DNA of 64,000 nt from a virus (IMGVR_UViG_2681813421_000002:22586-86585), one strand, 5' to 3'; positions 787-52,473 are shown, numbered from the stretch's first letter. Notes: a model not told the origin generated them from the sequence alone. Made by a program: numbers and translations.

Positions 787-824
787 TGTGTTAGAAAATA
801 CATATTAATTATCTAACACAAATG
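787..824. promoter_or_regulatory. Operator-like dyad (TGTGTTAGA ... TCTAACACA) just upstream of rdgC-like start
   Basis: Two copies of the dispersed TTTCTAACA core in inverted orientation, 12 bp upstream of the start codon. Confidence 0.5.
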
Positions 825-834
825 GGTGCATTTT

Positions 835-1488
835 CTATCCTTTCTTGAAATCGAAGTTGCTAGCAGTGGCCTGAAAGGTTCCTCCTGCCTTGAAAGCTAT
901 GTCTCCGTTAGCGGTGACAGCAATATTTTCCCCTTTAACATTGATGTTGTTGGCTGATTTGACGTTAACACTCCCTCCTGCATTCACGATTACATCAGCC
1001 GGACCAATGATATATATCTGCCCGGACTCATTCATGCCAATCCTTGAGCCTGCAGCCGTATTGGCAATTTCATAGCCGCCACCAGCAGTTCGTACTTCAA
1101 GAATATTGTTGCGGTGAATAACGAAGTCTTTCGTTGCTGAGATTTGGGGGCGGGGAGGCGCTCCATCTACTTCCGGCGGCGTCCAGCCGTTGCCTTTGCC
1201 AGATGCTTCTGGTGCAACGTTTGGAATTCCTCCCGGTGCATCCTGAGCGGCACCAACTATCATTGGGCGTCTGGTGTCTATTCGACCGTTAACATCTAAA
1301 TAAGGAAACTCTACCCAGACCAGGTCACCTTTGACTGTGGGTACAAAAGCGTTTCCGATGGGTAACAGGTATTCCGCCCAGGGTAGATCGTCATCAGGAA
1401 CGCCATTCCAGTCAGGTAAAACACGGACTTGAGCACGCATAAGCCCTGCCGGGTGCACAGTTCCAACAATTTGCGCTCTACGCTTCAT
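835..1488 (-). CDS. Baseplate spike/hub-like protein (gpV/gp5-like)
   Basis: 217 aa; N-terminal motif GDLVWVEF...P.IVGAA typical of phage baseplate spike OB-fold, C-terminal short beta-strand repeats (VNVKSANNINVKGENIAVTANGDIAF). Confidence 0.45.
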   Translation of the reverse strand: MKRRAQIVGTVHPAGLMRAQVRVLPDWNGVPDDDLPWAEYLLPIGNAFVPTVKGDLVWVEFPYLDVNGRIDTRRPMIVGAAQDAPGGIPNVAPEASGKGNGWTPPEVDGAPPRPQISATKDFVIHRNNILEVRTAGGGYEIANTAAGSRIGMNESGQIYIIGPADVIVNAGGSVNVKSANNINVKGENIAVTANGDIAFKAGGTFQATASNFDFKKG

Positions 1489-2465
1489 TTGTTCGGCACT
1501 CCCAATATCATTCGTGTTGTGTAGCCTACGCGGTCTTCAAAGTGCGCAACATTTTTTACTATCAGCTTACGGGGCATTGATTCATCAATGCGGTTTTCCT
1601 GGTCATAGCGGTATACGATAATCTCTATCACCATCCCCGGTTTTATATCAGGATTGCCTGCGACTTCTATATCCATTTTGGGGACGAGAGACAGCTGCAT
1701 ATTGCGAAGAGTTTCCATATCAGAGTCGGATATATAACGCACTGGGAGTGAGCTATCGCCATATTCGACGTAGCCATCGGTCATGGAATACCCAACAAAA
1801 CGATATTGATTCTTTGCTGTTGTCGCATGTTCCTGTTGGAGTAGGCGCATTTTGGACAAAGTGTATTCTGCTTTAGGGTTATTCCCCTCGTAGGTAAATG
1901 ATGGCGTTTGCTTCATCAGATCAGCCAGGGTGTAAAAGTTAAATTCCCCCCGGCATACCCAACATAATGCACCTTTGTCTCGCGCTATCTCCGAAAGCAT
2001 TTTTGACGGTTTGTCACCGGCATTCAGATGATATGTAACTGCGCGTTTTAGCACGCTGCTGGTAATTTTAAGCTTGCCGGAATATGCCTTGAATATAGCG
2101 TCTGGTGTTTTGTTGGTATGTAAATTTGTGCGCGGGGAGGGGATCTTAAACCTGCGCACGTCTTCACTGACAGCAATAACGGTAACAACATCACCAGCCA
2201 GCATTGCAGACGTAACAAAGAAATCTGTTTTAAAAGTGCCTGCATTACCGTTTGGATCGCCCATTTCAGCCACCAGCGATGCACCGTATTTGGCTTTCCA
2301 GTCATCAATTACGGTGCCGGTAGCGTCATGAATTTCCAGTTTTAGCAAAGGGGCTTTGAGGCTGGTTTTTTCTACATATACTGCGGTAAAAATCCAGTCT
2401 CGTGGCACTTTGTTATCGTTAATGAGCACTGACTGTAGAAAATATTGTTGTAACTCCTGGGCCAC
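1485..2465 (-). CDS. Hypothetical phage protein, co-oriented with spike-like gene (possible virion/baseplate module)
   Basis: 326 aa ORF with 4-bp start/stop overlap with neighbours, typical of structural operons. Confidence 0.45.
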   Translation of the reverse strand: MAQELQQYFLQSVLINDNKVPRDWIFTAVYVEKTSLKAPLLKLEIHDATGTVIDDWKAKYGASLVAEMGDPNGNAGTFKTDFFVTSAMLAGDVVTVIAVSEDVRRFKIPSPRTNLHTNKTPDAIFKAYSGKLKITSSVLKRAVTYHLNAGDKPSKMLSEIARDKGALCWVCRGEFNFYTLADLMKQTPSFTYEGNNPKAEYTLSKMRLLQQEHATTAKNQYRFVGYSMTDGYVEYGDSSLPVRYISDSDMETLRNMQLSLVPKMDIEVAGNPDIKPGMVIEIIVYRYDQENRIDESMPRKLIVKNVAHFEDRVGYTTRMILGVPNK

Positions 2466-2468
2466 TTA

Positions 2469-3236
2469 TCACCCCATAGATATCGAGGTTTCGGTAATAA
2501 TACGTTTTGCGTCCAACTCCCATGCTGTGATCACGTCTGTAATCACACTTATCGGCGCTTGTGTGGCATAAATACGCTCTTCTCCAATTGGTGCTGAAAC
2601 ATCCGTAAAGCCGACTTCTTTGGCATCCTGTATCGAGCAAATCAGCGGGACCGGGACACGAACAAGGTGAGTGGTTGCTTCAAATTGTGTACCTGTCATC
2701 AGGCGAAGCCGTGCGCCCAGCGAATTACACATCAGACTCATGGTCGCTTTATCAGTTGCCATTAACGTAACGTCATACGTCAGAATGGCCTGGGTGTATT
2801 CCAGTTCTGCTAAAGGCATTCCGGTATCTGGTTCGCAAAAACTGGCTACTTTTTTGCGGTCAATCTGCTGATCATCGTTGATATAATTGATATCCATAGT
2901 GCGTGAGATATTGACCAGGGGGAGAGCATCCCGGTTAATGTTCTGGTTTTCAGGTTTTCTCCCTTGCCCGGCATTTGCGCGACGAACTGCTTTAAGAAAC
3001 TCGATCGCATTGTCGAAACGGGCCATATAGACACGCTCTGCTGGTGGACGATTCAGGAATGACGCAAAGCGTTTTTCTTCCGGCGCGGGGGCCACCAGTA
3101 AGATATCAGAAAAAATGTTGCTGATTAGCGTCGCAAACGCGTTATCCACGTTTTCAAAGCCCGTGGTCTGGAATTTTCCTGTGCGTAAGGTTTGCCATTC
3201 ACCGGTTCGCGCCAGGAGGGTTTTATTTGAAGTCAT
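2469..3236 (-). CDS. Hypothetical phage protein
   Basis: 255 aa ORF, tightly packed with flanking genes. Confidence 0.45.
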   Translation of the reverse strand: MTSNKTLLARTGEWQTLRTGKFQTTGFENVDNAFATLISNIFSDILLVAPAPEEKRFASFLNRPPAERVYMARFDNAIEFLKAVRRANAGQGRKPENQNINRDALPLVNISRTMDINYINDDQQIDRKKVASFCEPDTGMPLAELEYTQAILTYDVTLMATDKATMSLMCNSLGARLRLMTGTQFEATTHLVRVPVPLICSIQDAKEVGFTDVSAPIGEERIYATQAPISVITDVITAWELDAKRIITETSISMG

Positions 3237-4036
3237 TCGATCACTCCGTTTTGAGTCGTATCAAAATTTCTGGCAGGTATGCAGTAGTAAAGCGAACCAA
3301 CATGCTGTGTGCCGTAGCTAAAAATACGGTGCACGTACCACCAGCGGCGGGCTACGCCGTTTACCATCTCTTCATTCCATTCAAGAATTGAGCCGACGGG
3401 GACGTTATTTGCTGCAATACGCAGAATCAGAACATCATCGGTTAAGCCATCCTGCTCACCGTCTGCGTCAATCGCATGGAAAGAGTCACGCCCGTCAGGG
3501 TTATCCAGCACATAAACGATTTCAGGTTCCTGGTAAGTCAGTTCGCGTTGGTTGTTATCCAGTTCAGTGAATGACTCTTCTCCTGTTTCGTCGCTGACTA
3601 CCCCATATGTGCCAACATCTGGTCGATATAAGAGAGCCTGAAACGCGTCTGGGCTGGATTCAATAATCAGCATCCAGTCTGCGCGGATTTGGTCGTTAAA
3701 GGCTTTATGCCCGTTATAGCGTGCTTTTAACTGTGGAGTCGGTTCTCTCCCAGCCAGGGAAGATGGAAGTATGGCTATATCTGATTCGCCAGCATCCGAA
3801 GTAAGGCCACCGTTGCTATCAGCAAAATTATCATGGCTATCAGCTTTGGCGGCGGGTTGCTCTTCCAGAATGCTGAATGAATCCGAACCGGTATTGCCAT
3901 GTTCCGGCGCGCCTCCTGCATTCGCTTCAATCGGTGCTGGCGTTTCTCTCTGCGTGCTGTCATGTTCTGACTCCTTACTTGCCAGGTTTGCATCGTCAGC
4001 AAACCATTCGTCAAAACGGCCCATAAGCATCCTCAA
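3233..4036 (-). CDS. Hypothetical phage protein with acidic, low-complexity N-terminal half
   Basis: 267 aa ORF; N-terminal D/E/S/G-rich region. Confidence 0.45.
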   Translation of the reverse strand: MRMLMGRFDEWFADDANLASKESEHDSTQRETPAPIEANAGGAPEHGNTGSDSFSILEEQPAAKADSHDNFADSNGGLTSDAGESDIAILPSSLAGREPTPQLKARYNGHKAFNDQIRADWMLIIESSPDAFQALLYRPDVGTYGVVSDETGEESFTELDNNQRELTYQEPEIVYVLDNPDGRDSFHAIDADGEQDGLTDDVLILRIAANNVPVGSILEWNEEMVNGVARRWWYVHRIFSYGTQHVGSLYYCIPARNFDTTQNGVIE

Positions 4037-4186
4037 AGGTCGATCTGTCAGGTATCGAAAGGAAGATTTTCGGGAGATTGTGATTTTGGATGAAGGAGGG
4101 GGAATTCATAAAATGCACTTGCGCACAGTGCAACAGTGCGCTATAGTTATGGCATTCGGTAATCATCACGGAGGATCAAATGACTA

Positions 4187-4489: not shown

Positions 4490-4559
4490 AACAGATACCC
4501 GGTTACGGACCGGGTTCTGACCAGAGTCCACTTAATACGCACGCTAGTAAGGGCAAAAA

Positions 4560-4898: not shown

Positions 4899-4918
4899 TA
4901 TAGTAAAACACATACAAA

Positions 4919-4948
4919 AAGCCCACTTAACAAGTGGGCTTTCCTTTG
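4919..4948 (+). terminator. Rho-independent terminator after higA
   Basis: Stem AAGCCCACTT/AAGTGGGCTT with 3-nt loop followed by a T-rich tract. Confidence 0.5.
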
Positions 4949-4954
4949 GAATTA

Positions 4955-5314: not shown

Positions 5315-5374
5315 GTTTGGCAGTCTGGAGGGCCGATTTTACATAAAATCAAGGTTTAAATATTTGGTGATTAT

Positions 5375-11450: not shown

Positions 11451-11454
11451 ATTG

Positions 11455-11700
11455 GCAGCCTCCTTTTGCTAATTTAAGGAGCTACCGCGTGAGGTTCCAA
11501 TCTCAATGGCGGTAGCACTGACTGGGTTGGAACTACCGGCGCAAAAGGGAACCGGCCTGCCTTTCGGCAGCCCAGCCAGCACTACCATTGATCTCTGAGC
11601 TAAACGCTACGTATGGCTGTGCGATGGCATGACACAAGAAAAGACGCTTTCGGCGTCTGTGTCGCCTTTTGCATTATCCGGGGTTCCAATCCCGGCACCC
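11455..11700 (-). ncRNA. c4: c4-like antisense RNA region (immI-type) with repeated target elements
   Basis: Two hairpins whose loops carry GGTTCCAATC (plus-strand reading, near 11490-11520 and 11678-11695) and an intervening complementary element GGTTGGAACTACC; layout matches P1 c4 with a1/b1 and a2/b2 sites ahead of icd. Confidence 0.4.
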
Positions 11701-11763
11701 GTTTTTCTAAGGTGCCGTAGAAATATACCCCACGATAATGCCAGGGCGCAACAGTCAGTATTT

Positions 11764-12249: not shown

Positions 12250-12269
12250 AATGTTAGAAAACTAATTTA
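12250..12269 (-). promoter_or_regulatory. Operator-like motif (AATTAGTTTTCTAACAT on minus strand)
   Basis: Member of dispersed operator family; lies at 3-prime end of ref-like gene, upstream of the small-ORF/c4-like region. Confidence 0.45.
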
Positions 12270-12840: not shown

Positions 12841-12904
12841 GATGGCTGCCTCTTACTTTTCAGCTATTTTTCTATGATTGATCAAAACAGTTAGATATTC
12901 AAAA

Positions 12905-12922
12905 TTGATTTTCTAACACAAA
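12905..12922 (+). promoter_or_regulatory. Operator-like motif (TTGATTTTCTAACACAAA) in divergent promoter region
   Basis: Between ref-like start (12840) and plus-strand operon start (13113). Confidence 0.5.
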
Positions 12923-17433: not shown

Positions 17434-17473
17434 TCAAATCATTTACGCACTCAAAATCACATTAGAACATTGA

Positions 17474-17493
17474 TTTTAGTTTTCTAACATATT
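17474..17493 (+). promoter_or_regulatory. Operator-like motif (TTTTAGTTTTCTAACATATT)
   Basis: About 40 bp upstream of 17532 start. Confidence 0.5.
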
Positions 17494-28435: not shown

Positions 28436-28455
28436 ATGTGTTAGAAATTTAATTT
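28436..28455 (-). promoter_or_regulatory. Operator-like motif (AATTAAATTTCTAACACATC on minus strand)
   Basis: Between cre stop and start of the 114-aa gene. Confidence 0.5.
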
Positions 28456-29482: not shown

Positions 29483-29633
29483 GAAACTATTTGACCTCTA
29501 TATACAGATGACGCTACGCGAAAAATATAAAAATGACAGGGTAGCTATAAGTTAATTTTCAAAATACAAGCCTTTGATTCGAGGCACGTATTTTCAGTGA
29601 TGTCAACACTGTTCATCTACACATGATTATAGC

Positions 29634-29667
29634 CTAACTTTAAATAATGCCAATTATTTAAAGTTAT
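29634..29667. other. lox-like recombination site (13-bp inverted arms, 8-bp spacer)
   Basis: CTAACTTTAAATA-ATGCCAAT-TATTTAAAGTTAT; same architecture and partial identity with loxP, located about 150 bp upstream of cre. Confidence 0.65.
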
Positions 29668-29762
29668 AAAATGCCGATTTTTTTTAATCCATCATAGATT
29701 GATGATGACCAGTAACACGTTGCCTTCATGGTCTTTAATTTGCGAAGTGTGGTTTCTACGGT

Positions 29763-29779
29763 TGGTTTTCTAAAATTGA
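29763..29779 (+). promoter_or_regulatory. Operator-like motif (TTGGTTTTCTAAAATTG)
   Basis: Variant core TTTCTAAAA upstream of repressor-candidate gene. Confidence 0.35.
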
Positions 29780-29845: not shown

Positions 29846-29864
29846 TTATGTTAGAAAACTAAAT
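29846..29864 (-). promoter_or_regulatory. Operator-like motif (ATTTAGTTTTCTAACATAAA on minus strand)
   Basis: 13 bp upstream of the start codon of 29877-30914. Confidence 0.5.
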
Positions 29865-29876: not shown

Positions 29877-30914
29877 ATGAGTAAGAAGTCGATCGAGAAA
29901 GAGTACAAACGGTTCCTGCAAACCGCTGAACGGTGGAAAGAGCTGGTGGTCGCAAACTCTGTTTTCCATGATACCAGTTATGCTGGCGAGGAATTCCGCC
30001 ATGTTGCATTAACGCATGACCAAAACATATTAGAAGAAGCTGAAAAATGTCTTGCTGAATGGAAAGCCTTCGTTGACATGTGCCGCGATGCCGACGGCAA
30101 AGCGTCGAACATTGTTGAGTCTGTATATTCTCCGATCCCATTCATCATTGAGGACACCAATCAAAGCACGCATGTCGTTGTGCAAAGCGCTACAACAACA
30201 CGTACATTTACACGTGAACAATTGCTAAAAAAATACGACAAAATCATAAAGAAAAGCCTGAAAAATAGGGTTTTTTCTCAAATCGTAGGTGCTCTTGAAG
30301 AAGAACAGCGCTTCTTTGAAGCTGAGCCTGAAGGCGAGATCTACCGGGCGCGTAAAGAGGCATATACAGATGTTGTGCTGACAACAAACATCGAAGGCAG
30401 CAATGCCCTTTCTCGCTTTAGAGTTGGCGCACATGGCGCATTGGTTTTCGCAAGACTACCGAAGACAACGATCCCCGTTGTCAATAATGTTGGTGAACGC
30501 CGGAGCATTACAATTTATTCTGGCGTCGAATCGGTACCATGCAGCCTTCTCGGCGATTTTAACTTATATCGTGTTCGTGACCTGGAAAAACACCAGCCAA
30601 GCTACGTTGCGAAGTCGTACATCTTAAGGAACATCGATATTCGCAATGAAAGCCTTAAGCAGAAATCCGCTAAGATGCTGGAGGATGCCGATCCGGCTAT
30701 TCGCCATATCATTGAACGTAAGATACGTACATCACGTGAAGCAATGGCAAGGTTGGATAAAATGGATCTGGAATTGTTAGACGTAATGATGGCCTCTGGA
30801 GACGACCTGACCGGCATTAAACTGAATGAAGCTCGTAAAAAATACGGCAAAGCAATCGAAGAACGTTACGGATACACATTCCCCCAAACGCAGTACGCCG
30901 CGAAGCTCTGGTAA
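29877..30914 (+). CDS. Candidate C1-type immunity repressor (positional analog of P1 c1)
   Basis: 345 aa; lies between lox/cre and pacB, convergent with pacB, flanked upstream by two operator-like motifs; I do not recognise the protein sequence itself. Confidence 0.4.
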   Translation: MSKKSIEKEYKRFLQTAERWKELVVANSVFHDTSYAGEEFRHVALTHDQNILEEAEKCLAEWKAFVDMCRDADGKASNIVESVYSPIPFIIEDTNQSTHVVVQSATTTRTFTREQLLKKYDKIIKKSLKNRVFSQIVGALEEEQRFFEAEPEGEIYRARKEAYTDVVLTTNIEGSNALSRFRVGAHGALVFARLPKTTIPVVNNVGERRSITIYSGVESVPCSLLGDFNLYRVRDLEKHQPSYVAKSYILRNIDIRNESLKQKSAKMLEDADPAIRHIIERKIRTSREAMARLDKMDLELLDVMMASGDDLTGIKLNEARKKYGKAIEERYGYTFPQTQYAAKLW

Positions 30915-34280: not shown

Positions 34281-34315
34281 TATATTAGAAAATTAATTCC
34301 ATTCATCTAACACTA
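34281..34315. promoter_or_regulatory. Operator-like dyad (TATTAGAAAATTAATT ... TCATCTAACACTA)
   Basis: Two core motifs in inverted orientation upstream of the lpa-like gene. Confidence 0.5.
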
Positions 34316-35733: not shown

Positions 35734-35809
35734 TGGTGGCCCCTACCGGACTTGAACCGGTGACCGTGCGATTATGAGTCGCCAGCTCTAACCACTGAGC
35801 TAAAGGGCC
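35734..35809 (-). tRNA. tRNA with CAU anticodon, Ile2 (lysidine) type
   Basis: 76 nt with encoded CCA; near-identical in acceptor, D and anticodon arms to E. coli ileX-type tRNA as I recall it. Confidence 0.75.
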
Positions 35810-35836
35810 GGATTACTGCCAATTTTGCTTACGCTT

Positions 35837-36664
35837 TTATTTCACCGGAACAAACGGAACAGCGGCATTACTGGTCATATACTGCGGTAATGTACCGTTC
35901 CATTTGTTGATCGCTTCCAACTCCATAACACCGGGGTTCTGGCGCAGAGCTTCACCACGTAAACGAATGGCATCAGCTTCGGCCTGGGCTTTTGTGCGAA
36001 TAGCATCAGCCTGTCCGGCAGCTTCCGCGCGCAGCATGTTGGCCTCTGCTTCACGTTGTTTGACCTCTTGCTCGCGTTGCAGGGTTTTTTGGTTTGCCGT
36101 AACTTTGGCGTTAATACTGTCAATAACTGTTGGCGGATATTCTGGCTTACCTACATAAGAGAGGCTCATCACCTGAATGCCGATTGGCGTCATTTCTTCC
36201 TGAATGTCTTTAAGGGCTGCATCAAGCAATTCAGATTTGCCACCGTCGATAAATTTGTCGGTGGTCATTTTGCTGGCTAACCGGTTCAGAGCATCTGCAA
36301 CCTTCTGGCGTAGATCGGTATCAGTAATATCATCTACACCTTTGCGATAGGTCTGAAATACCGTTGTGACTTTTGCTGGATCAACCTTGTAGGCTACGCC
36401 GATGTGGTAACCAATGGTTGTTCCGTCGCTCATCTGGAAGCTGAACGGCTCATCGTATGTCTTCATTTGCTTAAAGGTCGGGAAGATATAAACTTCAGTA
36501 TTCAAGCCTGTCCAGTAGCGACCAACACCAACTACTTCACCGATACCTTTATCATCCCCCAGCTTATTTACTTTGATCCCTACGTTACCTGGCTCTACCC
36601 GATCGCATCCGGTCAGACATAAAGAACCCAAAATAATCGCTGCACTAATCAACGTTTTTTTCAT
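35837..36664 (-). CDS. plp: Prohibitin-like SPFH/band-7 lipoprotein (Plp)
   Basis: 275 aa; lipoprotein signal LISAAIILGSLCLTGC, SPFH-like core and Ala/Glu-rich coiled-coil tail. Confidence 0.75.
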   Translation of the reverse strand: MKKTLISAAIILGSLCLTGCDRVEPGNVGIKVNKLGDDKGIGEVVGVGRYWTGLNTEVYIFPTFKQMKTYDEPFSFQMSDGTTIGYHIGVAYKVDPAKVTTVFQTYRKGVDDITDTDLRQKVADALNRLASKMTTDKFIDGGKSELLDAALKDIQEEMTPIGIQVMSLSYVGKPEYPPTVIDSINAKVTANQKTLQREQEVKQREAEANMLRAEAAGQADAIRTKAQAEADAIRLRGEALRQNPGVMELEAINKWNGTLPQYMTSNAAVPFVPVK

Positions 36665-36881
36665 TAATTAATTTCCTGGTTTTTTCACGAAAAAAGACTA
36701 CTGCGAAAGCCGGGTAAATGAGCGCGAGAAGGACTCCCAACAATACAAGTATTGTGCTGTTAGATGAGATCATATTTGGCAAAAGCCAAACATACAGAAC
36801 CAGTGACACAATCAAACAGAGGACGGCATAAATATATAACCGCACCCATAGCGTTCGACATTTGTTCGGATTGTTCTGCAT
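36645..36881 (-). CDS. upl: Small membrane protein upstream of plp (Upl-like)
   Basis: 78 aa with two hydrophobic helices; overlaps plp start. Confidence 0.5.
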   Translation of the reverse strand: MQNNPNKCRTLWVRLYIYAVLCLIVSLVLYVWLLPNMISSNSTILVLLGVLLALIYPAFAVVFFREKTRKLINEKNVD

Positions 36882-37144
36882 CCTCTCACTCCATTATTTA
36901 ACGAATAAAAAAGCTGCGGTGCCGGGTACCTCCCGGTGTCCTTTGGCTGGTTATCCACCGTGGACGGGGAAACAAGGAGAAATGAATGGACTGATATAAC
37001 CATTTCCCCGCGTGCGCTTAGCCGCATTCACCGCAATGGTAAGAGCACTTGGCTGGCTGGGCGGCGATGACGCCTGTACGCATTTGGTGATCCGGTTCTG
37101 CTTCCGGCATTCGCTTAATTAGCCAAATACTCTTAACGTTGCAC

Positions 37145-37231
37145 TGGCGGAGAGTAATGGAATCGAACCATCATCGCTTGCGCAATGGGACGGTTTTCAA
37201 GACCGCTTGAGCACCATGCTCCCTACTCTCC
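37145..37231 (-). tRNA. Type II tRNA with long variable arm, anticodon UGA (Ser-like)
   Basis: 87 nt; acceptor GGAGAGT/ACTCTCC, anticodon stem GCGGT/ACCGT with loop CUUGAAA, T-arm GATGG-TTCGATT-CCATT, G73 and CCA. Confidence 0.5.
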
Positions 37232-37365
37232 CGTTATTGTGGCGACCGGTGCTGATCTCCGGCTTGCGGTTATTTCAGACTCTCACGGGCGTTTAATTGC
37301 CCCGCCGAACAGCTCTTTTCCGCAATAGCTGCAATGTCTTTCGCGCATCAGCCTGCGCATTCACC

Positions 37366-37457
37366 ACAATGTTGAGAACACTGGTTGTCACGCTGCAACG
37401 CAACATTTATTCATAGATTGGGATATGACCCCGTTACGCCAGTGTTCTCAACGTTGT
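37366..37457. repeat. 19-bp inverted repeat (18/19 match) separated by 54 bp
   Basis: ACAATGTTGAGAACACTGG ... CCAGTGTTCTCAACGTTGT in the tRNA-cluster intergenic region. Confidence 0.55.
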
Positions 37458-37603
37458 AGTGCCGGTTACGGTTCCGGCCAGGCCTCTTCCTCAACGGGGT
37501 GTTCTCCATACGGACTACCGTTTATTGGTCGTTCCTGCGGTTTATGTTGTGAAGCCAGATGCTTATCTTCTGGTTGCTTCAAAGAGCTGCACTTCATCAC
37601 AAC

Positions 37604-37677
37604 GGTAAGGGTACTTCGTAGGGATTCGAACCCTCTGCCAAGCACGGCGATCTCCGACGTCGCAAAATACCCTTACC
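37604..37677 (-). other. tRNA-like element with T-arm motif but non-canonical secondary structure
   Basis: Contains AGGGTTCGAATCCCT and a 10-bp terminal pairing (GGTAAGGGTA/TACCCTTACC) but I could not fit a standard cloverleaf; directly abuts tRNA-Thr. Confidence 0.25.
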
Positions 37678-37685
37678 TGTTGTGT

Positions 37686-37761
37686 TGGTGCCGGTTAACG
37701 GACTCGAACCGCTGACATCCTGCTTACAAGGCAGGCGCTCTACCAACTGAGCTAAACCGGC
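37686..37761 (-). tRNA. tRNA-Thr (anticodon UGU)
   Basis: 76 nt; GCCGGTT acceptor, GCTCAGTTGGTAGAGC D-arm, loop CUUGUAA, T-arm GGTTCGAGTCC, CCA. Confidence 0.8.
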
Positions 37762-37763
37762 AT

Positions 37764-37840
37764 TGGCGATGGTGGGTGGATTCGAACCACCGACCGACAG
37801 CTTAGAAGGCTGCTGCTCTATCCTACTGAGCTACACCATC
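37764..37840 (-). tRNA. tRNA-Arg (anticodon UCU)
   Basis: 77 nt; loop CUUCUAA, T-arm GGTGGTTCGAATCCACC, CCA end. Confidence 0.75.
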
Positions 37841-38300
37841 ACTTGCCGGGTACGTCTCCGGCGAGGGCTTCCACCTCCGTATGCTTTTCGGCGCACCGCG
37901 CCCTGGCTGCAATTCGGTAACAGGGGATGCACAACCCTGGCTTCCAGCGTGATTAGCGCCTTCAGCATGACGGGATATACCCGTAGTAGGATGTTATCCC
38001 AGAAAGCCATTAATCAATGGCTGTTACGCGGGAGGGACGTAACAGGTAAGGGCGCTGACCAGAAAGACCTGACCCTTCTCATTCATCTGGTTAATCACAC
38101 CAGCACCCTTGCCTGTTATGCCTCCCCGTTCCCTAATACACAGACGGGGACACTCTGCGGTCGATTTTTTGACGGGGGACGACTCATACCCCGTGGCGTC
38201 AGGCTTCTTAGGCCGCTACCATCATCAGATCATCGTTTGCATTTACTTTAATGGTCGGGTTCTAAACCGCCGCAAAGTCGCTAACCATGACGAAAACCCT

Positions 38301-38324
38301 AAAAAAGCCCACCCGAAGATGGGC
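38301..38324 (-). terminator. Rho-independent terminator (minus strand)
   Basis: GCCCA-loop-TGGGC followed on minus strand by TTTTTT. Confidence 0.45.
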
Positions 38325-38344
38325 AAATACGCTACATCTCACAC

Positions 38345-38422
38345 AAGAAAGAAGCCGACTGCCTGAGCTGGATTCACTTTCAAATGCCCGCTGAAAGGGA
38401 TCACAAGTCGGCTTCTTTCTTG
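38345..38422. repeat. Perfect 17-bp inverted repeat with 45-nt spacer
   Basis: CAAGAAAGAAGCCGACT ... AGTCGGCTTCTTTCTTG. Confidence 0.55.
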
Positions 38423-38638
38423 ATGCGGCACTCTCTCCGCCCGTCACCGCTCTGTCTCGGTTGTCGCGTTTGCCACGCCAGCCGTAACGAGGTTTAAAGT
38501 CTTTGCACGTTTCCATCACTCGACTGCCGTCTGTGGCTGTTCGTTGCAGCGGGGGTGCCTCCCCCTGGGGATATCCCCGGCCTTACCCCATTCTTTCAAG
38601 ACACAATGCAAGGCCACATCCGCATAGGTGCATTACTG

Positions 38639-38703
38639 CAACATTAAGGAGACTCAGGGCAAAAGGTAACCGCCACAAAAATCCCTATGCCTCCTTAATG
38701 TTG
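38639..38703. repeat. Perfect 13-bp inverted repeat with 39-nt spacer containing an inner stem
   Basis: CAACATTAAGGAG ... CTCCTTAATGTTG. Confidence 0.55.
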
Positions 38704-38905
38704 AAGACGTGCATTGATGATTAGATGCAGCATGTACCGTTACTCTCTGCCGGACCATCATCAATGAACACCTTAAAAAGACCTTCCGTGGCTCAACATG
38801 TATTGTCGTTTACTCCGCAAAGTGCTCTCTCTGAAACCACTTTCCGCACTAAACCTGCTGAACTTTGGCCTGCACGGTGCCAAAGCGTGCTCTTGCGTTA
38901 CTACA

Positions 38906-38921
38906 CTTTTCTAACACTTTA
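38906..38921 (+). promoter_or_regulatory. Operator-like motif (TTTTCTAACACTTTAA)
   Basis: Core TTTCTAACAC inside the structured noncoding region. Confidence 0.4.
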
Positions 38922-39055
38922 ATTTGTTAAATGCTGGTGGGCAAACAATAACCAATAAGTGACTATCAAGCCCAGCAAGCGAAACGTGGGTACCGCCCAC
39001 CAGCAAGGAAAATTCTATGTTAAGTTACCTTCACAATCAATACATTCGAATTGTG

Positions 39056-39076
39056 AATTTAGTTTTCTAACATATT
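39056..39076 (+). promoter_or_regulatory. Operator-like motif (AATTTAGTTTTCTAACATATT)
   Basis: Overlaps the 3-prime end of gene 39075-40283; placed to control minus-strand transcription into the 38.3-39.0 kb noncoding region. Confidence 0.45.
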
Positions 39077-40304: not shown

Positions 40305-40325
40305 AAATTAGTTTTCTAACATATT
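40305..40325 (+). promoter_or_regulatory. Operator-like motif (AAATTAGTTTTCTAACATATT)
   Basis: 22 bp upstream of the start codon of 39075-40283. Confidence 0.5.
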
Positions 40326-40907: not shown

Positions 40908-41402
40908 TTAATCAAGACAAACATACTCCGTGATAGCTTTTATGGCTTCAGCGGCACTGCGCGCCTCAAAGCAGTAGTAACCGGCTTCAGTGAGGCGAGT
41001 CATCCAGACGAGTTGTTCGGGAGTCAGGCGATTTCTCCCATGTTTCATCTCAATGCGCATTCCGTGGTATCCCCCACAAGCAAGGTCTATAGAAAGATCG
41101 GGGTATCCCTTCTTTTGGCCCTCTGCCACCATTTTTATTGCCGTCCTTATGCCTCGCAGGCCACCGTTTGGAGTGGCGTGAGTATGCTCATACACATAAC
41201 GCATATTGCGATACAACCAGTCCAGGACGCGAACCTGCTCGTAATGCTCATGGTTCCTTTTGATTAGATCTGGGTTTTTCTCCAGTTCTCTAAGAGCTGC
41301 GGCATGTGGGGATGTTTCAGAATATTCACTGCGACGCCTTCTCTTTTGCGCTATTTTTCTAACACACTCATTGATAGTAAATATGCGAAATAATAACAAC
41401 AA
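40908..41402 (-). CDS. VRR-NUC domain nuclease
   Basis: 164 aa; HATPNGG...GYPDLSIDLACGGYHGMRIEMKHG (PD-(D/E)XK core). Confidence 0.6.
   Translation of the reverse strand: MLLLFRIFTINECVRKIAQKRRRRSEYSETSPHAAALRELEKNPDLIKRNHEHYEQVRVLDWLYRNMRYVYEHTHATPNGGLRGIRTAIKMVAEGQKKGYPDLSIDLACGGYHGMRIEMKHGRNRLTPEQLVWMTRLTEAGYYCFEARSAAEAIKAITEYVCLD
41351..41368 (+). promoter_or_regulatory. Operator-like motif (CTATTTTTCTAACACACT) within 5-prime region of VRR-NUC ORF
   Basis: Exact core TTTCTAACAC; position inside the annotated ORF is unusual. Confidence 0.35.
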
Positions 41403-41538: not shown

Positions 41539-41799
41539 TTAAAGGGTTATTTTATCCTGTTCGGATAATTCTTTGATTGTCTTGTCGATTGCGATCAACC
41601 AACCTTCATAGGTTAAATCATCAACAAGTTCTACCAACTTATCATCGGTGTGAGGAAAGTATATCCAGCTCCAGTTCGCAGGGTTTTCTGCTTTTCGCAG
41701 CGTAAAAACCTTCTTGTATCGGTGGAACTCAAGGATATACCCCTTCGATATGGAATATTCCTTTAGGTCTTCGACCGTAAACCTACGATTCTTTCGCAT
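41539..41799 (-). CDS. Hypothetical protein
   Basis: 86 aa ORF. Confidence 0.4.
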   Translation of the reverse strand: MRKNRRFTVEDLKEYSISKGYILEFHRYKKVFTLRKAENPANWSWIYFPHTDDKLVELVDDLTYEGWLIAIDKTIKELSEQDKITL

Positions 41800-48200: not shown

Positions 48201-49184
48201 CCAAAGGACGTTTGCCGATTTGAGTGTTGAATCATCCGTGTCGGGGATCATCTCCAGGAAGGTTTCCGGGTGTTTACGCAATACCCATACGTCCACCACG
48301 GTATCTGTACCGGATTCGCTGAACGTACCGGAAGGCATACGATGTGCGCCCAAAAATTCCGCTTTACGGCTGACTTTATCGCGCAATTTTTTATATTTCG
48401 TACCATCGGTCATGCCATTTGGCACCACCAATACGATAAGCCCACCAGGCTTAACCTTGTCGATCGTGCGCAGCACAAAGTAATTGCCAACGTTCTTCTC
48501 GTTTGCATATGCCGGATCAAGCCCGGCAACGCCGGAACGCCCTTCACCAAACGGTACGTTACCAACAGCGTGGTCATACATTGCATCTTTCGCCGCCAGC
48601 GCCTCAAACGCCCCGATATTCACATCGTCTTCCGGGTGCAAAAGCTGGTTTATTCGACCGGAAATCGGAGACAGTTCGGCGCTGGTCATTATCATGCCCT
48701 GTCGTTTTGTCTCCTGGAAAATACCTGTGCCCGCTGATGGTTCCAGTACGTGCCCGCCATCAATACCGTAGTCAGCAAACAGATCCCATATACCTTCAGC
48801 CATAAACTGTGGCGTGTAGTATTCGTATTGGCTGCCCTCTCCATCTGTCAGGCCGCCTTCACCGGTATACCCAGCAAGAATCTGACGTTGTTCGTCAGTT
48901 AATTTCGCCCCATCGAAGCCGGGCGGAAGGGAATTAAGAAGATTTACTGCGGCATTGTTTGCTGCCCGGCGTGTTTTCTGAATACTGACGCCATCGGCTT
49001 TCCTGACGCCAAAGGTCGCAACAGCTCGTAATTTATGCAACCGACTAACAATTTCAATCAGTTCGCCTAAGCTGGAGGCTTCACTGATTGAATGAAGTAG
49101 TTTGTCCAAAGGATTTCCCCCTCTAAACCGTAAAAATTCCGCTATGCGGTACGGTTGAGAGGGTATGGAGAATGTTATTTTCAC
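42273..49184 (-). CDS. darB: DarB-like antirestriction protein (N6-adenine methyltransferase domain plus SF2 helicase)
   Basis: 2303 aa; VLEPSAGTGIF (SAM-binding) and NVPFG near N-terminus; helicase motifs GTGLGKT, DEGHNYRN, TATP further on; size matches P1 DarB. Confidence 0.8.
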   Translation of the reverse strand: MKITFSIPSQPYRIAEFLRFRGGNPLDKLLHSISEASSLGELIEIVSRLHKLRAVATFGVRKADGVSIQKTRRAANNAAVNLLNSLPPGFDGAKLTDEQRQILAGYTGEGGLTDGEGSQYEYYTPQFMAEGIWDLFADYGIDGGHVLEPSAGTGIFQETKRQGMIMTSAELSPISGRINQLLHPEDDVNIGAFEALAAKDAMYDHAVGNVPFGEGRSGVAGLDPAYANEKNVGNYFVLRTIDKVKPGGLIVLVVPNGMTDGTKYKKLRDKVSRKAEFLGAHRMPSGTFSESGTDTVVDVWVLRKHPETFLEMIPDTDDSTLKSANVLWDTFLKGKWFTTEGKRFVYGDMERTSFRNTLVVKKDGRVSNESMKTALSRRFDSRINWDLLGVTTQAWQGAKVGDKRLVGGIWHEFDGLKWVKDTTTKSSALDVSRYGVSTFGDLQIAFQSTNGILALSWDQISAIASDYPSVVSDEVAAMIRFAGKQREKDRERVMRGALIGQLINKALDLRNLGVNVDDKLADASRLAAAEVAKYGPPHAIKLNGLAEAGAKNWMTFTGNVKQDGSTSDLLAGRLDVTDGAAGIDFTRPEQVIAHLFSDVALNPITLGDFREAFAGELPEDDDAALEYLAKFDDIAIDGYGCLLPMDRATSGDVATKTALLVGWRDASTGEQKANFERQLAKIEEKRIFTPLNKVTVNLNARWLDRRLIKEFLAEQGYDEFKYTEPDLKVVDGILVSPDDYEGKDGVFTGYQLRTVNGKNGNEFKKANNKDGFLNQLENYLNGVKPRGQNANEYLDKIAQLEVSFNDWLRTHPQADQIARDYNDAFNGFIPFTHSDAPLGLEGLSGKRIPLTYQNEEVRRLSEDGRGIMGFGTGLGKTTTALALEAYNFETGRTKRTCIVVPKAVYQNWYHEAQSFYSADAFANMMFIGLDEVRDDSGNILTAPVLDENGEPRLDSNGQPLTRNVVKESASAVIVQRMNMIPSSNWRTVIMTKEQFASIPLREKTIEENSQQAVFNAVEMGRLDLASGKHRDAQKKNKIKDQAANTGTTKKQNIPYFEDMNFDSVIADEGHNYRNSFNAGREAGQLAYLPNPAVSKMARDMAVKAAYMMKRNNGRGVVMLTATPLVNSPIDAFNMLSTVIPQEEWMRMGIVTPDDFVRVFGKTATVQVQKISGEVEEKQGLVGFQNLDGLRGIFHRWTTLKTAADVGATVKIPDIIENTLQIPMTGEQEAAYEELRKRAQELSRNDELTVDENGHITNDKPDDFIFSIIRDMDKVAIDPDLYASAITFQFPVELADKVKAIADALPKVAGGKVADDADEAEEDGAGGLVSTRTSKVVKTTFSEHPAHVEIRASIELEAEILKAIAAAGIDLQQVSHPIPPKYAALIENLREGLKNGKQIVFIDEKAQHQKLRRIIASALQMPEQEIGIINATTVSQAGGIKLKKVNKPTEPTPNKNGEYKEGAWETYYSKLAQYEDYLSAKNDAGLEGMEGIAADYNEGRTRIIICNKKAEVGINLHIGTTDIHHLTLPWTPASIDQRNGRGARVGSPQEKVNVHYYCGKGTFDDFRLDTLKRKKDWIKMVMTSDMSEIANGDADDADERAIMLAANPEERRAIMARQAQEREERLKLKAQREANNALDIYLKAANAAGKDIGMMETELKSAMEQIEYYQRNLDDLIKAGTNRNGQKYALEQLSSYRKRARVLRFAITRAKDADTIMKRSRGDVERAIKSGVLDISIDVIQNPQEYMRTDKNILLHKGSYYRAVIDDRETTAIVRVEKIDGEKAQYLCRIAWLDRASRYARAPGSIVTLPFDSVIEAVTFEEGVAESRATAARGVQCHQLSTILTRDQFYDAIRNGVMNVIAGKPGNAWGGGSAIKYWAYRTDDGQIALSSAYDGVIGQKIGRASDIAPERWIYPDGNDEALKREVAKIQASDNPLNIVDGEGFLQALYGYDYIQGMQAWGAQATMDDVAQEFENWMAGRGLSGRSLNKVTSEDILSLFRKPSGEGLESFWRTVLAYRLFQGRMKAFSNIDDIERMFNQVKIAKIKAKIEKTRSALVAWRDALFEQYKSLSDADGWAALEQLANNGVDGAKLAIVQADNPLESPAAQWIKVGAVINAFDEKHISKDDFADAVSVNRLVEMATRRARELKDGDYVNELPDTLKSATWQDYVSLKNGGATESEIAERLEQAESKREEQAAVAEARADEAANDDYIIVVNDKPIRAKARVRGRWWSVSEDVGAVYLIADQPGSSTIRNAKDAIKKIGGRFWNFEANPVADVNFDRPAWMVSTRYSVDELRKIIADAA

Positions 49185-49259
49185 GGGGACGATACTACCG
49201 TCAAAATCACATACTCCCCATAGTTTGCCTACTTATTAACCCATGACCGGGAGAAAAAT

Positions 49260-49745
49260 ATGGCAAACATTGAACCTCGCTGGCTAATTGAAGCCCGTAA
49301 GCACATTGGCCTGACTGAAATAAAAGGCGCTAAACACAACCCTGAAATCGTTCAGTTCTGGCGCGACATCAAGCGCGGCGGAATTAAAGACGATGAAACG
49401 CCGTGGTGCGCAGCATTTGTCGGTGCAATGCTGGAACGTGTAGGCATCCGCTCAACAAGATTTGAGTCGGCAAAATCCTATCTGGATTGGGGCGAGAAAT
49501 TAGATACACCGGCATACGGATGTATCGTTGTATTTACCCGCGTAGGCGGTGGGCACGTAGGCTTCGTTGTCGGACGCCGCGCCAATGGCGATCTGCTTGT
49601 CCTGGGTGGGAACCAGGGGGATGCGGTTAATATTCGCGCATTCCCAACATCAAGAGTGTCTGGCTATCGCTGGCCTGCTGGCGAACCACGCAATACCGCT
49701 TTGTTACCAGTCGGAGACGCAGCAACCTCAACTAATGAGGCATGA
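49260..49745 (+). CDS. Conserved phage protein with Cys/His pair (possible CHAP/NlpC-P60-like hydrolase; TIGR02594-like)
   Basis: 161 aa; ETPWCAAFV ... GGGHVGFVVG. Confidence 0.4.
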   Translation: MANIEPRWLIEARKHIGLTEIKGAKHNPEIVQFWRDIKRGGIKDDETPWCAAFVGAMLERVGIRSTRFESAKSYLDWGEKLDTPAYGCIVVFTRVGGGHVGFVVGRRANGDLLVLGGNQGDAVNIRAFPTSRVSGYRWPAGEPRNTALLPVGDAATSTNEA

Positions 49746-49769
49746 AAAAAGCCCCGGCCAGGCCGGGGC
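49745..49769 (-). terminator. Rho-independent terminator (minus strand)
   Basis: GCCCCGGCC-A-GGCCGGGGC followed on minus strand by a T-run. Confidence 0.5.
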
Positions 49770-49777
49770 ATCACGCT

Positions 49778-49978
49778 TCAAGTCACGATCCAATCATTAC
49801 CGACTATATCAGCCGTCGATAAATAAACTTCCCGGATCTTGAGTCCATTAATACAAAACCATCCGGTAGTAGAGTAATTATCAGGCCAGGCCCATACATC
49901 AATACTCCATGCTTTACGGCGGCACACTTCAGCCTGTCCTTCCCTGATTTTTTTTACCGCCTGCATGATGTCCATCAC
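49778..49978 (-). CDS. DUF2829-like small protein (free-standing counterpart of the ant C-terminal extension at 10294-10490)
   Basis: 66 aa; KIREGQAEVCRRKAWSIDVWAWPDN...DIVGNDWIVT aligns with C-terminus of the 313-aa antirepressor. Confidence 0.5.
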   Translation of the reverse strand: MMDIMQAVKKIREGQAEVCRRKAWSIDVWAWPDNYSTTGWFCINGLKIREVYLSTADIVGNDWIVT

Positions 49979-50682
49979 TCACCTCCCCAACCGATCACCT
50001 GGAATTGCCCCATTTTGGGGTGATACCAGCGTTTTCCTCGGTGTTCAGCCTCCGACATCATCCGGTTAAAAGCATTCATGAAGGGAGATAAGGCCACGAT
50101 GGAACGACGCGACAATACCCCCTCTGGAGTTAAAAACTCATGCGTATCGGTGGGAATCCGGTAAGCGTTGACAAGGTTGCGGCATTTGGCTTCGGTCAGG
50201 CCACATTTCGCAGCCAGCTGGCGGTAGCCAATGTAGCCATCTGGCATATTGCCTTTCTTGATTTGCTCAACGGTTTCAGCGACCTGGCTAACCTTTGACT
50301 CAACAGCATGAAGCCGCTTTTGCTGCTGAACTGCATTTGCAGCCATTGCGGCGATCATCTCTATTTCGGTCAACGGCTGGCGTACTTGTTCTTCCAGTTC
50401 GCGCCAGCGGTCCACCAGCCGGGCGGTGAATTCCGGAGAGAGCTGCGCAACGACAATAATGCTGTCTCGTTTGCCTTGCTCGCCTTCGAAGACGTAGTGT
50501 GAATTTTTAACTTTAAATCCTAAGTTATTGATATTTTCGGAAACCTCCATTGGAGGAAGTGGAATAACACCTGATTTACTCAAGCGTTCAATAGTGCGTT
50601 TAACGTTATCCGGGCGACTTCCCACCAGCTCCGCGATCTCAATGCTGGTCATTGATGGCTTTTCAAGAATGCAGATTTCCAT
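49975..50682 (-). CDS. ant: Antirepressor-like protein (Rha-type), paralog of 10294-11235
   Basis: 235 aa; shares N-terminal (MTSIEIAELVGSR...) and central (YIGYRQLAAKCGLTEAKCRNLVNA) blocks with the other copy. Confidence 0.6.
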   Translation of the reverse strand: MEICILEKPSMTSIEIAELVGSRPDNVKRTIERLSKSGVIPLPPMEVSENINNLGFKVKNSHYVFEGEQGKRDSIIVVAQLSPEFTARLVDRWRELEEQVRQPLTEIEMIAAMAANAVQQQKRLHAVESKVSQVAETVEQIKKGNMPDGYIGYRQLAAKCGLTEAKCRNLVNAYRIPTDTHEFLTPEGVLSRRSIVALSPFMNAFNRMMSEAEHRGKRWYHPKMGQFQVIGWGGE

Positions 50683-50906
50683 CAGTGTGCCTCCGCAATT
50701 CCGGGATTGGTAATATTGCGATACCAGGGATTAGTGTTTGGTTGTGGGGAAGTAGAGAAACGACCAGTAAGAACACCATACTGATCAGGGATCAGAGAAC
50801 GGGCTTCTTTTTCGGTTGCGGCAATTGCGAAGTGATCGCAGTGTTTTTGCAGGGAGTGGAAACGCCAGATAAATTCCGGGCGCGAGCAAGGATTGGCATT
50901 AACCAT
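50682..50906 (-). CDS. icd: Icd-like (Ash family) small protein, second copy
   Basis: EFIWRFHSLQKH...AATEKEAR; the track ORF extends further 5-prime into what I read as noncoding RNA sequence. Confidence 0.45.
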   Translation of the reverse strand: MVNANPCSRPEFIWRFHSLQKHCDHFAIAATEKEARSLIPDQYGVLTGRFSTSPQPNTNPWYRNITNPGIAEAH

Positions 50907-50929
50907 AGTTACGGCCTCATTCGTAGGTT

Positions 50930-51200
50930 TAACAACCTGCGCCCCGCTGCTAAACGGGTGGCAGGACGTGACGGGGTTAGCAGACTGGCACGAATGAAAC
51001 CAGCAGGCCGAAGCCTCCCCATCACGCCCCACCATAATTCGGGCGTAACGTGGTTTTACGGACACAAAAAACCGCAATATCGGATATCTGCGGTTGTCCG
51101 CATTCGTATTCAGGCTGCTAAACCCGGTCGCAGAATTTGCTACGACGACATGAATATAAGCCTGAAAACATGGAAGATCAACTAAAAATTTCAGCAATGG
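50930..51200 (-). ncRNA. Second c4-like antisense RNA region with a different target motif
   Basis: Repeated GCTGCTAAAC elements (near 50935 and 51113) and a partly complementary GGTTAGCAG element between them. Confidence 0.35.
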
Positions 51201-51248
51201 ATGACTTCAGTCGATGATGCAGATCATACATTCCGATTTAGAAACAGC

Positions 51249-51270
51249 AAATTAATTTTCTAACACAAAT
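51249..51270 (+). promoter_or_regulatory. Operator-like motif (AAATTAATTTTCTAACACAAAT)
   Basis: Upstream of the second c4/icd/ant-like module. Confidence 0.5.
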
Positions 51271-51319
51271 TATTGAGCGAGCATTTTCCGATCATTGGGA
51301 TGTTTTGTAGACGCACAGG

Positions 51320-52282
51320 TCATCCCCTAAAGCCAGCCGGGATTGACCAATCCTCACGGTCAAATTCAGACCGATAGCCACGCTGTTTCATCAGGTCAAA
51401 GGCTTCACCAATGGTTGCACACCCCTGGGAGCCAGAATAATCCATTGAGAAATCCAGGGCTCTGGATTGTTTAGGCTTATTCACTGCGGTAGCTGCACTA
51501 CGTATCCATGCAAATTTTTTTGCCAGCTTTTCAGCGGTACGATACAGAGCCTGCCGTTTTGCGTGCCCCTCGTCTGAACGACGCTTTGCAGCTCTCGCTT
51601 TTGCCGCCGCCAGGCAGTGGTTGGTATGTTCTTCCCTGATTACTGGTTTTTTATCCAGTACCCCATTATCCGCTTGAGAACTATCTGCTGGTGAAGCCTT
51701 TGGCTGAACCGCGCATGATCTTTCTCTTCTTTTGGCTATAGAGTGACTCTTATTTTCTATTGGCTGTTCATTTTGAACATGGGGGGACTTGTTCAATTTG
51801 AACAGGGGGGTCCCAGTTTCAAAAAAATAACGAACCTTTGAAATCAACTGCTTAACCAGTTTTGTGGCGTTGGCAAATTTGATGCCCTGCTTACCCCCTA
51901 TCTCCATTGCTACATGAATGAAGTGGAGAAATTGTGTCGTAAACCGATATACGTTACACACCTGGGCATTGTTATTCGCTACCTGATGTTGCTTAACAAG
52001 CATTCCGCACTTCGTCGCTTCAGCAAATGCCCGGCGCACAGTAGAAATACTGCGTCCTGTAATCTCGGACATATCAGCATATGAGCGACGGATCATGTAT
52101 TCATCGGTAGACCCTGCCAGGTTGGCGAACTCGGCAATAATGGCGCTATGTGAAGGGGAAAGAAGACCGCTATGACGAGCAAAAAAACTCAACTGATGAC
52201 CTTTGATTTTTTTGTGGTATTCAGTGTTGTTTTTATACTCAGAAGTGTTGAAAGTTACTGAAACTGAATTTAAAATACTCAC
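51320..52282 (-). CDS. RepL-like replication protein (HTH; tentative)
   Basis: 320 aa; HTH-like segment MSEITGRSISTVRRAFAEATKCGMLV; operator-controlled and adjacent to immI-like module, as for P1 repL. Confidence 0.4.
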   Translation of the reverse strand: MSILNSVSVTFNTSEYKNNTEYHKKIKGHQLSFFARHSGLLSPSHSAIIAEFANLAGSTDEYMIRRSYADMSEITGRSISTVRRAFAEATKCGMLVKQHQVANNNAQVCNVYRFTTQFLHFIHVAMEIGGKQGIKFANATKLVKQLISKVRYFFETGTPLFKLNKSPHVQNEQPIENKSHSIAKRRERSCAVQPKASPADSSQADNGVLDKKPVIREEHTNHCLAAAKARAAKRRSDEGHAKRQALYRTAEKLAKKFAWIRSAATAVNKPKQSRALDFSMDYSGSQGCATIGEAFDLMKQRGYRSEFDREDWSIPAGFRG

Positions 52283-52453
52283 CAGATAGTTCCGTGAAAA
52301 AATCTATCTACCGTATAAATCTATGGCAGTGGATTTATACACCCAAAAAGCCGCTTCTCAGCGGCTTTTGCTTTTTTGGCAGTCGCTACCGGAGCAGTGA
52401 CCGCGATCCTACTCGATCCCATCCACCAGGATCAACAGTGTATATAAATACAC

Positions 52454-52473
52454 TATGTTAGAAATTTAACTTA
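52454..52473 (-). promoter_or_regulatory. Operator-like motif (AGTTAAATTTCTAACATAG on minus strand)
   Basis: Overlaps a candidate promoter upstream of the RepL-like gene. Confidence 0.5.

Follow-up and report, generated by a model that had tools for sequence, protein, structure and literature searches.

The DNA studied here, a 64,000-nt stretch of viral sequence (IMGVR_UViG_2681813421_000002:22586-86585, called the window in its full length), is by its sequence a P1-family plasmid prophage related to coliphage D6 (D6-like, P1 subgroup 2). Dispersed along it is a family of short motifs, and we conclude, with a probability of somewhat under nine in ten (about 0.88), that they serve as operators for the C1-family repressor which the prophage itself encodes, a protein of 345 aa whose gene lies on the plus strand at 29877..30914 and which is the presumed binder. 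An operator interpretation had been proposed in an initial annotation of this DNA, and our in silico results support it. The repressor and its sites appear to belong to the P1-family C1/operator type of immunity, in a specificity class different from that of P1.

The core TTTCTAACA is present in 12 exact copies in the 64 kb, where 0.53 are expected, and none of 100 shuffled sequences reached this count, so the dispersed motif family is real. The 18-mer AATTAGTTTTCTAACAYA, allowing up to three mismatches, has 11 copies in the window against 0.10 expected. An iterated position matrix, built initially from the exact cores, gave 14 strong sites; they occupy 13 loci spread over 52 kb and score 20-36, and no match scored between 8 and 20. 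Matrix positions 1-9 are near-invariant (T-T-T-C-T-A-A-C-A) and are flanked by preferences for AATTA(G/A)T on the 5′ side and YA on the 3′ side, giving a site of ~18 bp, AATTAGT-TTTCTAACA-YA, whose consensus is asymmetric and non-palindromic. Thirteen of the 14 loci listed in the initial annotation were recovered within 1-3 bp. The intergenic placement that it described was also borne out, as 16 of the 17 matrix matches in the curated D6 genome fall within the 10.2% of it that is non-coding (binomial p = 2e-15); one site of the window, 41349-41366, is inside the annotated 5′ end of pmgM. Inverted partner half-sites, mostly weaker than the main site, were found at five loci (hrdC, ref/orf88, pdcB, lpa and immI). 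They follow the pattern TGTTAGAAA-N12-TTTCTAACA, with cores 21 bp apart, and other offsets are without such pairing. At hrdC both arms are strong and each is the partner of the other; outside this dyad, a partner agreeing at 6 or more of 9 positions accompanies 4 of 12 sites, the per-position chance being 0.011 (p = 7e-6). The dyads noticed earlier at 787-824 and 34281-34315 are both real, and pairing at a fixed 21-bp register is an addition to what had been noticed.

The gene that had been pointed out as a candidate repressor encodes a homologue of P1 C1. Its product is 21% identical to P1 C1 over 240 aa (BLASTP, E = 2e-8), and both C1 proteins belong to the Pfam family PF27008 (Phage_P7_repressor_C1), which is on record for the protein cluster; in a local copy of the Pfam profiles no family matched either C1. 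The GenBank label at this position is a 345-aa 'prophage repressor, similar to P1 C1'. As in the P1/P7 system, the gene adjoins the pac genes and the recombinase site, in the order dre-rox-c1-pacB-pacA-lpa, and it is accompanied by more than ten dispersed asymmetric operators of ~17 bp, namely the 14 strong sites plus weaker ones in the window and 17 in the D6 genome. P1 itself is reported to have 22 dispersed operators with the asymmetric consensus ATTGCTCTAATAAATTT, and its modulators are Coi, Lxc, Ant1/2 and c4 (PMC8546580); this consensus, as given in the initial annotation, is correct both by that source and by the annotated operators of AF234172. The protein_bind features of AF234172 served as the P1 comparison set and include the C1 operators Oref, Omat, Ossb, Oc4, OrepL, Orlf, Odmt, Obanab, O26, Oppp, OpmgRa/b, OpmgT and Olpa; matches to the P1 consensus also lie beside c1, at 94177-94724. 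For nine of 12 loci in the window (dmt/hrdC, ref, c4 twice, c1, lpa, the ban/tRNA operon, pmgR/S, pmgL/M and repL) P1 has a counterpart at the orthologous gene, and the placement thus mirrors the P1 C1 regulon, as had been claimed.

The recognition sequences themselves set the two systems apart. Even with three mismatches allowed, the window contains no match to the P1/P7 consensus, as would be expected of a different immunity group. The P1 core, TGC[T/A]CTAAT, has 18 copies in P1, one in the window and one in D6, and the D6-type core TTTCTAACA has none in P1. The earlier description of the motif as unlike the P1 operator therefore holds with respect to cross-matches, but not in full, as the pentamer TCTAA and the layout of a core plus an AT-rich tail are common to both. 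Likewise, a heteroimmune repressor fits the mutual exclusion of operator types, but it is not a new implication, because heteroimmunity between D6 and P1 has long been known.

We compared orthologous sites in D6 and in the relatives L007, L008, L009 and L014, whose C1 proteins are 90, 80, 70 and 51% identical to that of the window; L015 (C1 44%) yielded no alignment spanning a motif in this comparison. Among the relatives in which the sequence flanking the sites is no more than 69-86% identical, 19 of 20 orthologous sites have an intact 9-bp core, where the chance survival of a 9-mer, at ~78% per-base identity, is ~11%. At the proximal c1 site, TGTTAGAAAA is kept in all aligned D6-clade relatives except L016, down to 44% C1 identity. 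In L007 (CP099081) the operator core is unchanged and C1 is 90% identical, yet the flanking genes dre, pacB and lpa are 97-99% identical, and c1 is therefore a local hotspot of divergence or exchange.

Over larger distances the motif changes along with the repressor. A tblastn search of PLSDB with C1 returned 149 plasmids in identity classes of ≥99%, ~97, 90, 80, 70 and 30%, and a large protein collection contributed further C1 variants at 60, 51, 48 and 44%. Words containing Chi apart, TTTCTAACA is the top word in elements with C1 at 90, 80, 70, 51 and 44% identity, and in an element with C1 at 48% the motif lies upstream of lpa. It is absent from Citrobacter, Leclercia and Pantoea plasmids, whose C1 is ~30% identical. 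There, the top enriched intergenic words are TCTAAGG (consensus AATTCTAAGGnTTT; Citrobacter, Leclercia) and TTCTAAA (ACAnAATTCTAAA; Pantoea), with intergenic positions at 9 of 10 (p = 3e-8), 5 of 6 and 5 of 6 sites. These motifs are syntenic with those of the window: they lie in front of c1, at the stop of the recombinase gene, in the divergent ref region, before rdgC/hrdC and around lpa/pmgS. Within the P1 clade, C1 variants 53-58% identical to P1 C1 retain ATTGCTCTAAT and differ in the tail. The motif classes AATTCTAAGG, AATTCTAAA and ATTGCTCTAATCAAT were observed in L012 (Citrobacter NZ_CP099368), L011 (Leclercia NZ_CP042508), L013 (Pantoea CP009882) and L017/L018 (P1-clade metagenome contigs); the locus L010, a remnant of c1 within a resistance plasmid, gave no information on the motif. 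TCTAA is present in all four classes, P1 included, which suggests a conserved TCTAA core with specificity residing in the flanks. The pattern of co-variation supports, and would be expected of, a co-evolving repressor-operator pair.

The leftmost operators form the dyad upstream of hrdC-dcm-dmt, the counterpart of P1 Odmt/Op68, with a left arm at 787..804 (minus strand, TATGTATTTTCTAACACA) and a right arm at 803..820 (plus strand, TATTAATTATCTAACACA), cores 21 bp apart; the right arm was matched by both the matrix and the 18-mer, and in a strict sigma-70 scan a promoter-like sequence, 837->808, overlaps the dyad. The site at 12250..12267 (minus) lies upstream of a second immI-like operon (orf86/85, isrK-like RNA, C4 RNA, icd2 and ant2), with a TTGAAT-17-TACATT promoter, recognized by eye, directly downstream of it. 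The C4 antisense RNA gene of this module is at 11505..11592 (minus; Rfam RF01695, 76.7 bits, E = 3e-13). In the divergent region between ref and the orf88 early operon, an operator at 12903..12920 (plus), the counterpart of P1 Oref, is paired with a weak inverted half-site facing ref (TATCTAACT, 7/9; 12889..12897, minus). Between ppp and pdcB, the operator at 17474..17491 (plus) has a weak inverted partner at 17460..17468 (minus; GTTCTAATG, 6/9), whose D6 equivalent has a matrix score of 15.4. A further operator, at 28437..28454 (minus), lies where the gene for the Dre recombinase has its stop codon and precedes an orf117-orf116-dut operon, and the Citrobacter, Leclercia and Pantoea relatives carry their class-specific motif at the syntenic position.

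Upstream of c1, a proximal operator with an exact core and a matrix match (29847..29864, minus) ends 13 bp before the start codon and likely mediates c1 autoregulation. The initial annotation had also listed a locus at 29763-29779. Its core, TTTCTAAAA, has a poor flank and alone is not significant, but when the regions upstream of c1 are aligned it coincides with a conserved island, TTTTCTAA, that is a perfect TTTCTAACA in the two diverged relatives L014 and L015, and for this reason 29759..29776 (plus) is a plausible degenerate distal c1 operator.

On the right-hand side of c1, the operator upstream of lpa (34281..34298, minus; core TTTCTAATA), the counterpart of P1 Olpa/Op94, has an inverted partner half-site at 34304..34312 (plus; CATCTAACA, 7/9). 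Two operators precede the minus-strand tRNA operon: one with a weak flank, at 38901..38918 (plus) in an unannotated gap, whose core is kept in L007, L008 and L014, and one at 39057..39074 (plus), which adjoins the minus-strand promoter-like sequence 39040->39012, lies inside a plus-strand TTGTGA-16-TATTAT and is the likely counterpart of P1 Oban. The best score of all belongs to 40306..40323 (plus), between the pmgR terminator and pmgS, the counterpart of P1 OpmgRa/b. The site at 41349..41366 (plus), at pmgM, corresponds to O26/Op82, which in P1 lies before pmgL-pmgM. In the first immI module, 51250..51267 (plus) lies upstream of the c4-icd-ant operon and is the counterpart of P1 Oc4/Op51; its partner half-site (51236..51244, minus; TTTCTAAAT, 7/9) is in the spacer of a promoter pointing at c4-icd-ant, and the C4 antisense RNA gene is at 50954..51039 (minus; Rfam RF01695 and RF03163; a1b1 targets at 51107-51159). 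Since both Rfam-confirmed C4 RNA operons have an upstream site, both antirepressor modules are preceded by one. The last operator, 52454..52471 (minus), lies upstream of repL and is the counterpart of P1 OrepL/Op53.

By eye, the operator is within the -35/-10 spacer at three promoters, those of repL (TTGTTA-16-TAGTGT), pdcB (TTGATT-17-TATTTT) and immI (TTGCTG-16-TATGAT, where the site concerned is the weak partner), and promoter-like hexamers are abutted or overlapped by sites at c1 and at the second immI operon. The strict sigma-70 scan placed promoter-like sequences over or next to operators at hrdC, in the tRNA gap and at pmgM, where the site lies 14-39 nt downstream of a strong promoter-like sequence, 41417->41390. 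Promoter occlusion is hence well supported for some of the sites and assumed for the others. The promoter-like sequence at pmgM (TTTACA-16-TATTAT with TG, 10/12) sits on the annotated TTG start of this gene (40908-41402), and similarity to P1 PmgM starts only at residue 29 of its product. Beside the operators at 38.9-39.07 kb, ~700 bp (38300-39050) without an annotated gene extend to the tRNA genes. In this interval the minus-strand promoter-like 39040->39012 is followed by two terminator-like hairpins (39000-38986 and 38324-38307), and it may encode an unannotated small RNA or leader; an Rfam search of the 38.2-39.15 kb gap, in which a DicF-like RNA was sought, gave no match to any family.

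We infer that the sites are bound by C1, in monomeric form, and that repression works by promoter occlusion. In a lysogen, C1 would bind each asymmetric ~18-bp site and block RNA polymerase at the early promoters, among them those of lpa (the late-gene activator), repL (lytic replication) and the two c4/icd/antirepressor modules, as well as those of ref, hrdC-dmt, the tRNA operon, pmgS and pmgM, and it would also repress c1 itself. P1 C1 binds as a monomer, and the same is assumed here. The five loci with two inverted sites in the fixed 21-bp register would then be divalent operators. D6-type and P1 phages would fail to cross-repress because their specificities differ.

Several observations weigh against this reading. 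Overall, the strict promoter scan was not enriched, returning fewer sites than in shuffled sequences, and its predictions overlap some operators only. The strong site at lpa is ~20 bp upstream of the best -35 and not over it. Four sites (38.9-41.4 kb) are oriented opposite to the flanking genes, and their target promoters are therefore uncertain. The 86-aa open reading frame (ORF) in the lxc position directly after ulx (41539-41799) is without sequence similarity to Lxc, and only ~220 bp separate rox and c1, which leaves no room for coi; with homologues of the P1 co-regulators thus not found, the control circuit may differ from that of P1 in its details. Finally, divergence between lineages is about as rapid for Lpa and PacA as for C1, so that the co-variation by itself does not identify C1 as the binder; what points to C1 is the experimental record in P1.

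The divergence of Lpa is also what favors the least improbable alternative, in which the motif is bound by another regulator of the phage, the candidates being Lpa, as activator of the late genes, and a further, unrecognised repressor from the early operons. Lpa is 37% identical to its counterpart in the Citrobacter relative and C1 29%, so that lineage co-variation does not discriminate between them. Nevertheless, we regard another regulator as improbable, as the genes that follow the sites are early and regulatory ones, lpa and c1 among them, rather than structural operons driven by late promoters, and as the orthologous positions in P1 are annotated C1 operators with an experimental basis. 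Late promoters were rejected as an explanation of the motif: those of P1 use a different box, AAGTGACTT-N4-TAnnAT, and the window has a separate candidate box, TGTGATTT. Somewhat less probable again is a shared promoter element, such as an unusual spacer or an UP element, recognized by RNA polymerase or a host factor. Several sites do look promoter-like in an extended consensus, TTGTTA-aattagtTTTCTAACA-TATTWT; yet the motif varies in position relative to the hexamers (in the spacer, upstream of -35, downstream of +1), occurs in both orientations and in inverted pairs of fixed register, has an invariant 9-mer outside the sigma-70 consensus, and changes class between lineages that have the same hosts. 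As for chance similarity or functionless remnants of a small mobile repeat, the intergenic DNA here is AT-rich and two-copy short repeats often arise by chance, but the shuffle counts and the intergenic bias refute chance, and the conservation of the core amid diverged flanks, together with copies that share no extended flanking similarity, makes this explanation scarcely credible.

For the C1 of the window, an AlphaFold2 model based on a 19-sequence family alignment (mean predicted local distance difference test score 84.7, predicted template modelling score 0.52) had Tus as its only significant structural neighbour, with template modelling scores of only ~0.4; in the model the similarity to Tus extends over both domains. 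Two unusually long strands, 99-112 and 155-171, are predicted, the second of which carries the family-invariant R157 and R159 and is aligned by hhalign with Tus 225-243, not significantly (probability 9.8% and 1.6%). The PF05472 (Tus) profile had no match to C1 at E ≤ 10, phmmer of Tus against 129 C1-family proteins found nothing, no relative of either C1 was found by sequence among solved structures, and the viral structure library BFVD gave no matches to the model. We found no paper in the open-access literature that links Tus and C1. A Tus-like fold of C1 is, on the strength of the model, moderately supported, and it fits the asymmetric operator because the monomeric Tus recognizes its own asymmetric site, Ter, through interdomain beta-strands in the major groove. 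We offer tentatively, as doubtful in its entirety, the proposal that the P1-like C1 family has a Tus fold, that each monomer would bind one asymmetric site via long interdomain beta-strands (with the invariant Arg157 and Arg159), and that at least four immunity classes would be formed by a constant TCTAA with 2-4 changed flanking bases (P1 GC..T, D6 TT..CA, Citrobacter/Leclercia AT..GG, Pantoea TT..AA). If true, the enterobacterial Tus-Ter fork trap and the C1-operator system of phage-plasmids may share an origin, one being derived from the other.

With regard to the element itself, the window is collinear with Escherichia phage D6 (MF356679, 91,159 bp), at an identity that is mostly 94-98% and 97% overall, in agreement with its initial description as P1-like. 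When a 14-kb test stretch of the window was compared with PLSDB, about 90 plasmids from E. coli and Salmonella showed a coverage of at least 80%. D6 was placed in P1 subgroup 2 by Pfeifer et al. (PMC10879196). In the GenBank records of D6, c1 is annotated and the operators are not. Chi (GCTGGTGG) has 46 copies in the window against 1.8 expected, and the commonest 9-mers contain Chi in the window, in P1 and in every relative except the L010 remnant; an abundance of Chi is a known trait of P1. Four tRNA genes were assigned to the minus strand at 35734-37840 by ARAGORN and Rfam, whereas the three of the D6 GenBank record, at matching positions, are given on the plus strand; the last is tRNA-Arg(tct) here and tRNA-Asn in the D6 record, and tRNA-Met (35734-35809) is within a block that differs from D6. 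Each of the two immI-type modules (11505-11715 and 50954-51159) comprises a C4 antisense RNA, icd and an antirepressor; the second adds the isrK-like RNA (11637-11715) and the first the a1b1 target element (51107-51159). The second recurrent intergenic word, TGTGATTT, has nine copies (seven by the intergenic count), at 4079, 8771, 49204, 55222, 59341 and other positions, often with a TAnnnT-like hexamer ~6 nt further on, and in D6-type phages may correspond to the late-promoter box of P1, AAGTGACTT. The best promoter-like sequence around rox (29626-29653; TTGGCA-16-TATAAT, 11/12) overlaps it on the minus strand and points toward dre.

The kind of system, phage D6 and its heteroimmunity with P1 were already known. 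The operator consensus, the census of sites, the P1-like regulon, the TCTAA-core rule and the Tus-like model were not found in the records or open literature searched; the D6 genome paper and a 2004 immC paper lay outside this search, and a prior description of the consensus is possible. The system of the window would represent a new specificity class of P1-family C1 immunity. Plasmid prophages of the D6-like kind occur commonly in E. coli, Salmonella and Shigella, and the 149 PLSDB plasmids encode this C1 type. The operator consensus would predict co-immunity among P1-family elements, delimit the early regulon and flag unannotated early promoters. It would also supply an orthogonal repressor/operator pair to stand beside the Dre/rox recombinase, which derives from D6, a P1-related plasmid prophage. 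A constant TCTAA core with variable flanks amounts to a testable specificity code, and the Tus-like model provides a first hypothesis on the structure of this repressor, for whose fold no relative has been solved.

The closest known relative is phage D6 (MF356679 / NC_050154; immC region AY753669), an element of the same kind with nearly all sites in the same places, from which the window differs as a mosaic variant with several replaced blocks; D6 also has a mismatch in its repL operator (TTGCTAACA). The Tus-Ter fork trap of E. coli differs in having no significant sequence or profile similarity to C1, and nothing suggests that C1 arrests replication forks. With lambdoid CI/Cro the system has in common a prophage master repressor, autoregulation and an immunity specificity set by the repressor-operator pair, but lambdoid operators are palindromic, bound by helix-turn-helix dimers and clustered at OL and OR, whereas the sites in the window are asymmetric and scattered over the whole genome. 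The likeness to the P1/P7 C1 system is far greater, and includes a homologous repressor (PF27008) beside pacB and lox/rox, ~17-22 dispersed asymmetric operators of 17-18 bp at corresponding genes, and some divalent operators with their AT-rich parts in the middle, TCTAA being common to both. The differences lie in the recognition core, TTTCTAACA here and TGCTCTAAT in P1/P7, with no cross-matches, and in C1 itself, which is only 21% identical and in the window has a C-terminal extension of ~60 aa. They extend to the geometry of the divalent sites, whose TCTAA pentamers are 21 bp apart and point outward here, whereas those of P1 Obanab (TCTAA and ACTAA) face inward at a spacing of 13 bp, and to the immI modules, of which P1 has one and the window two.

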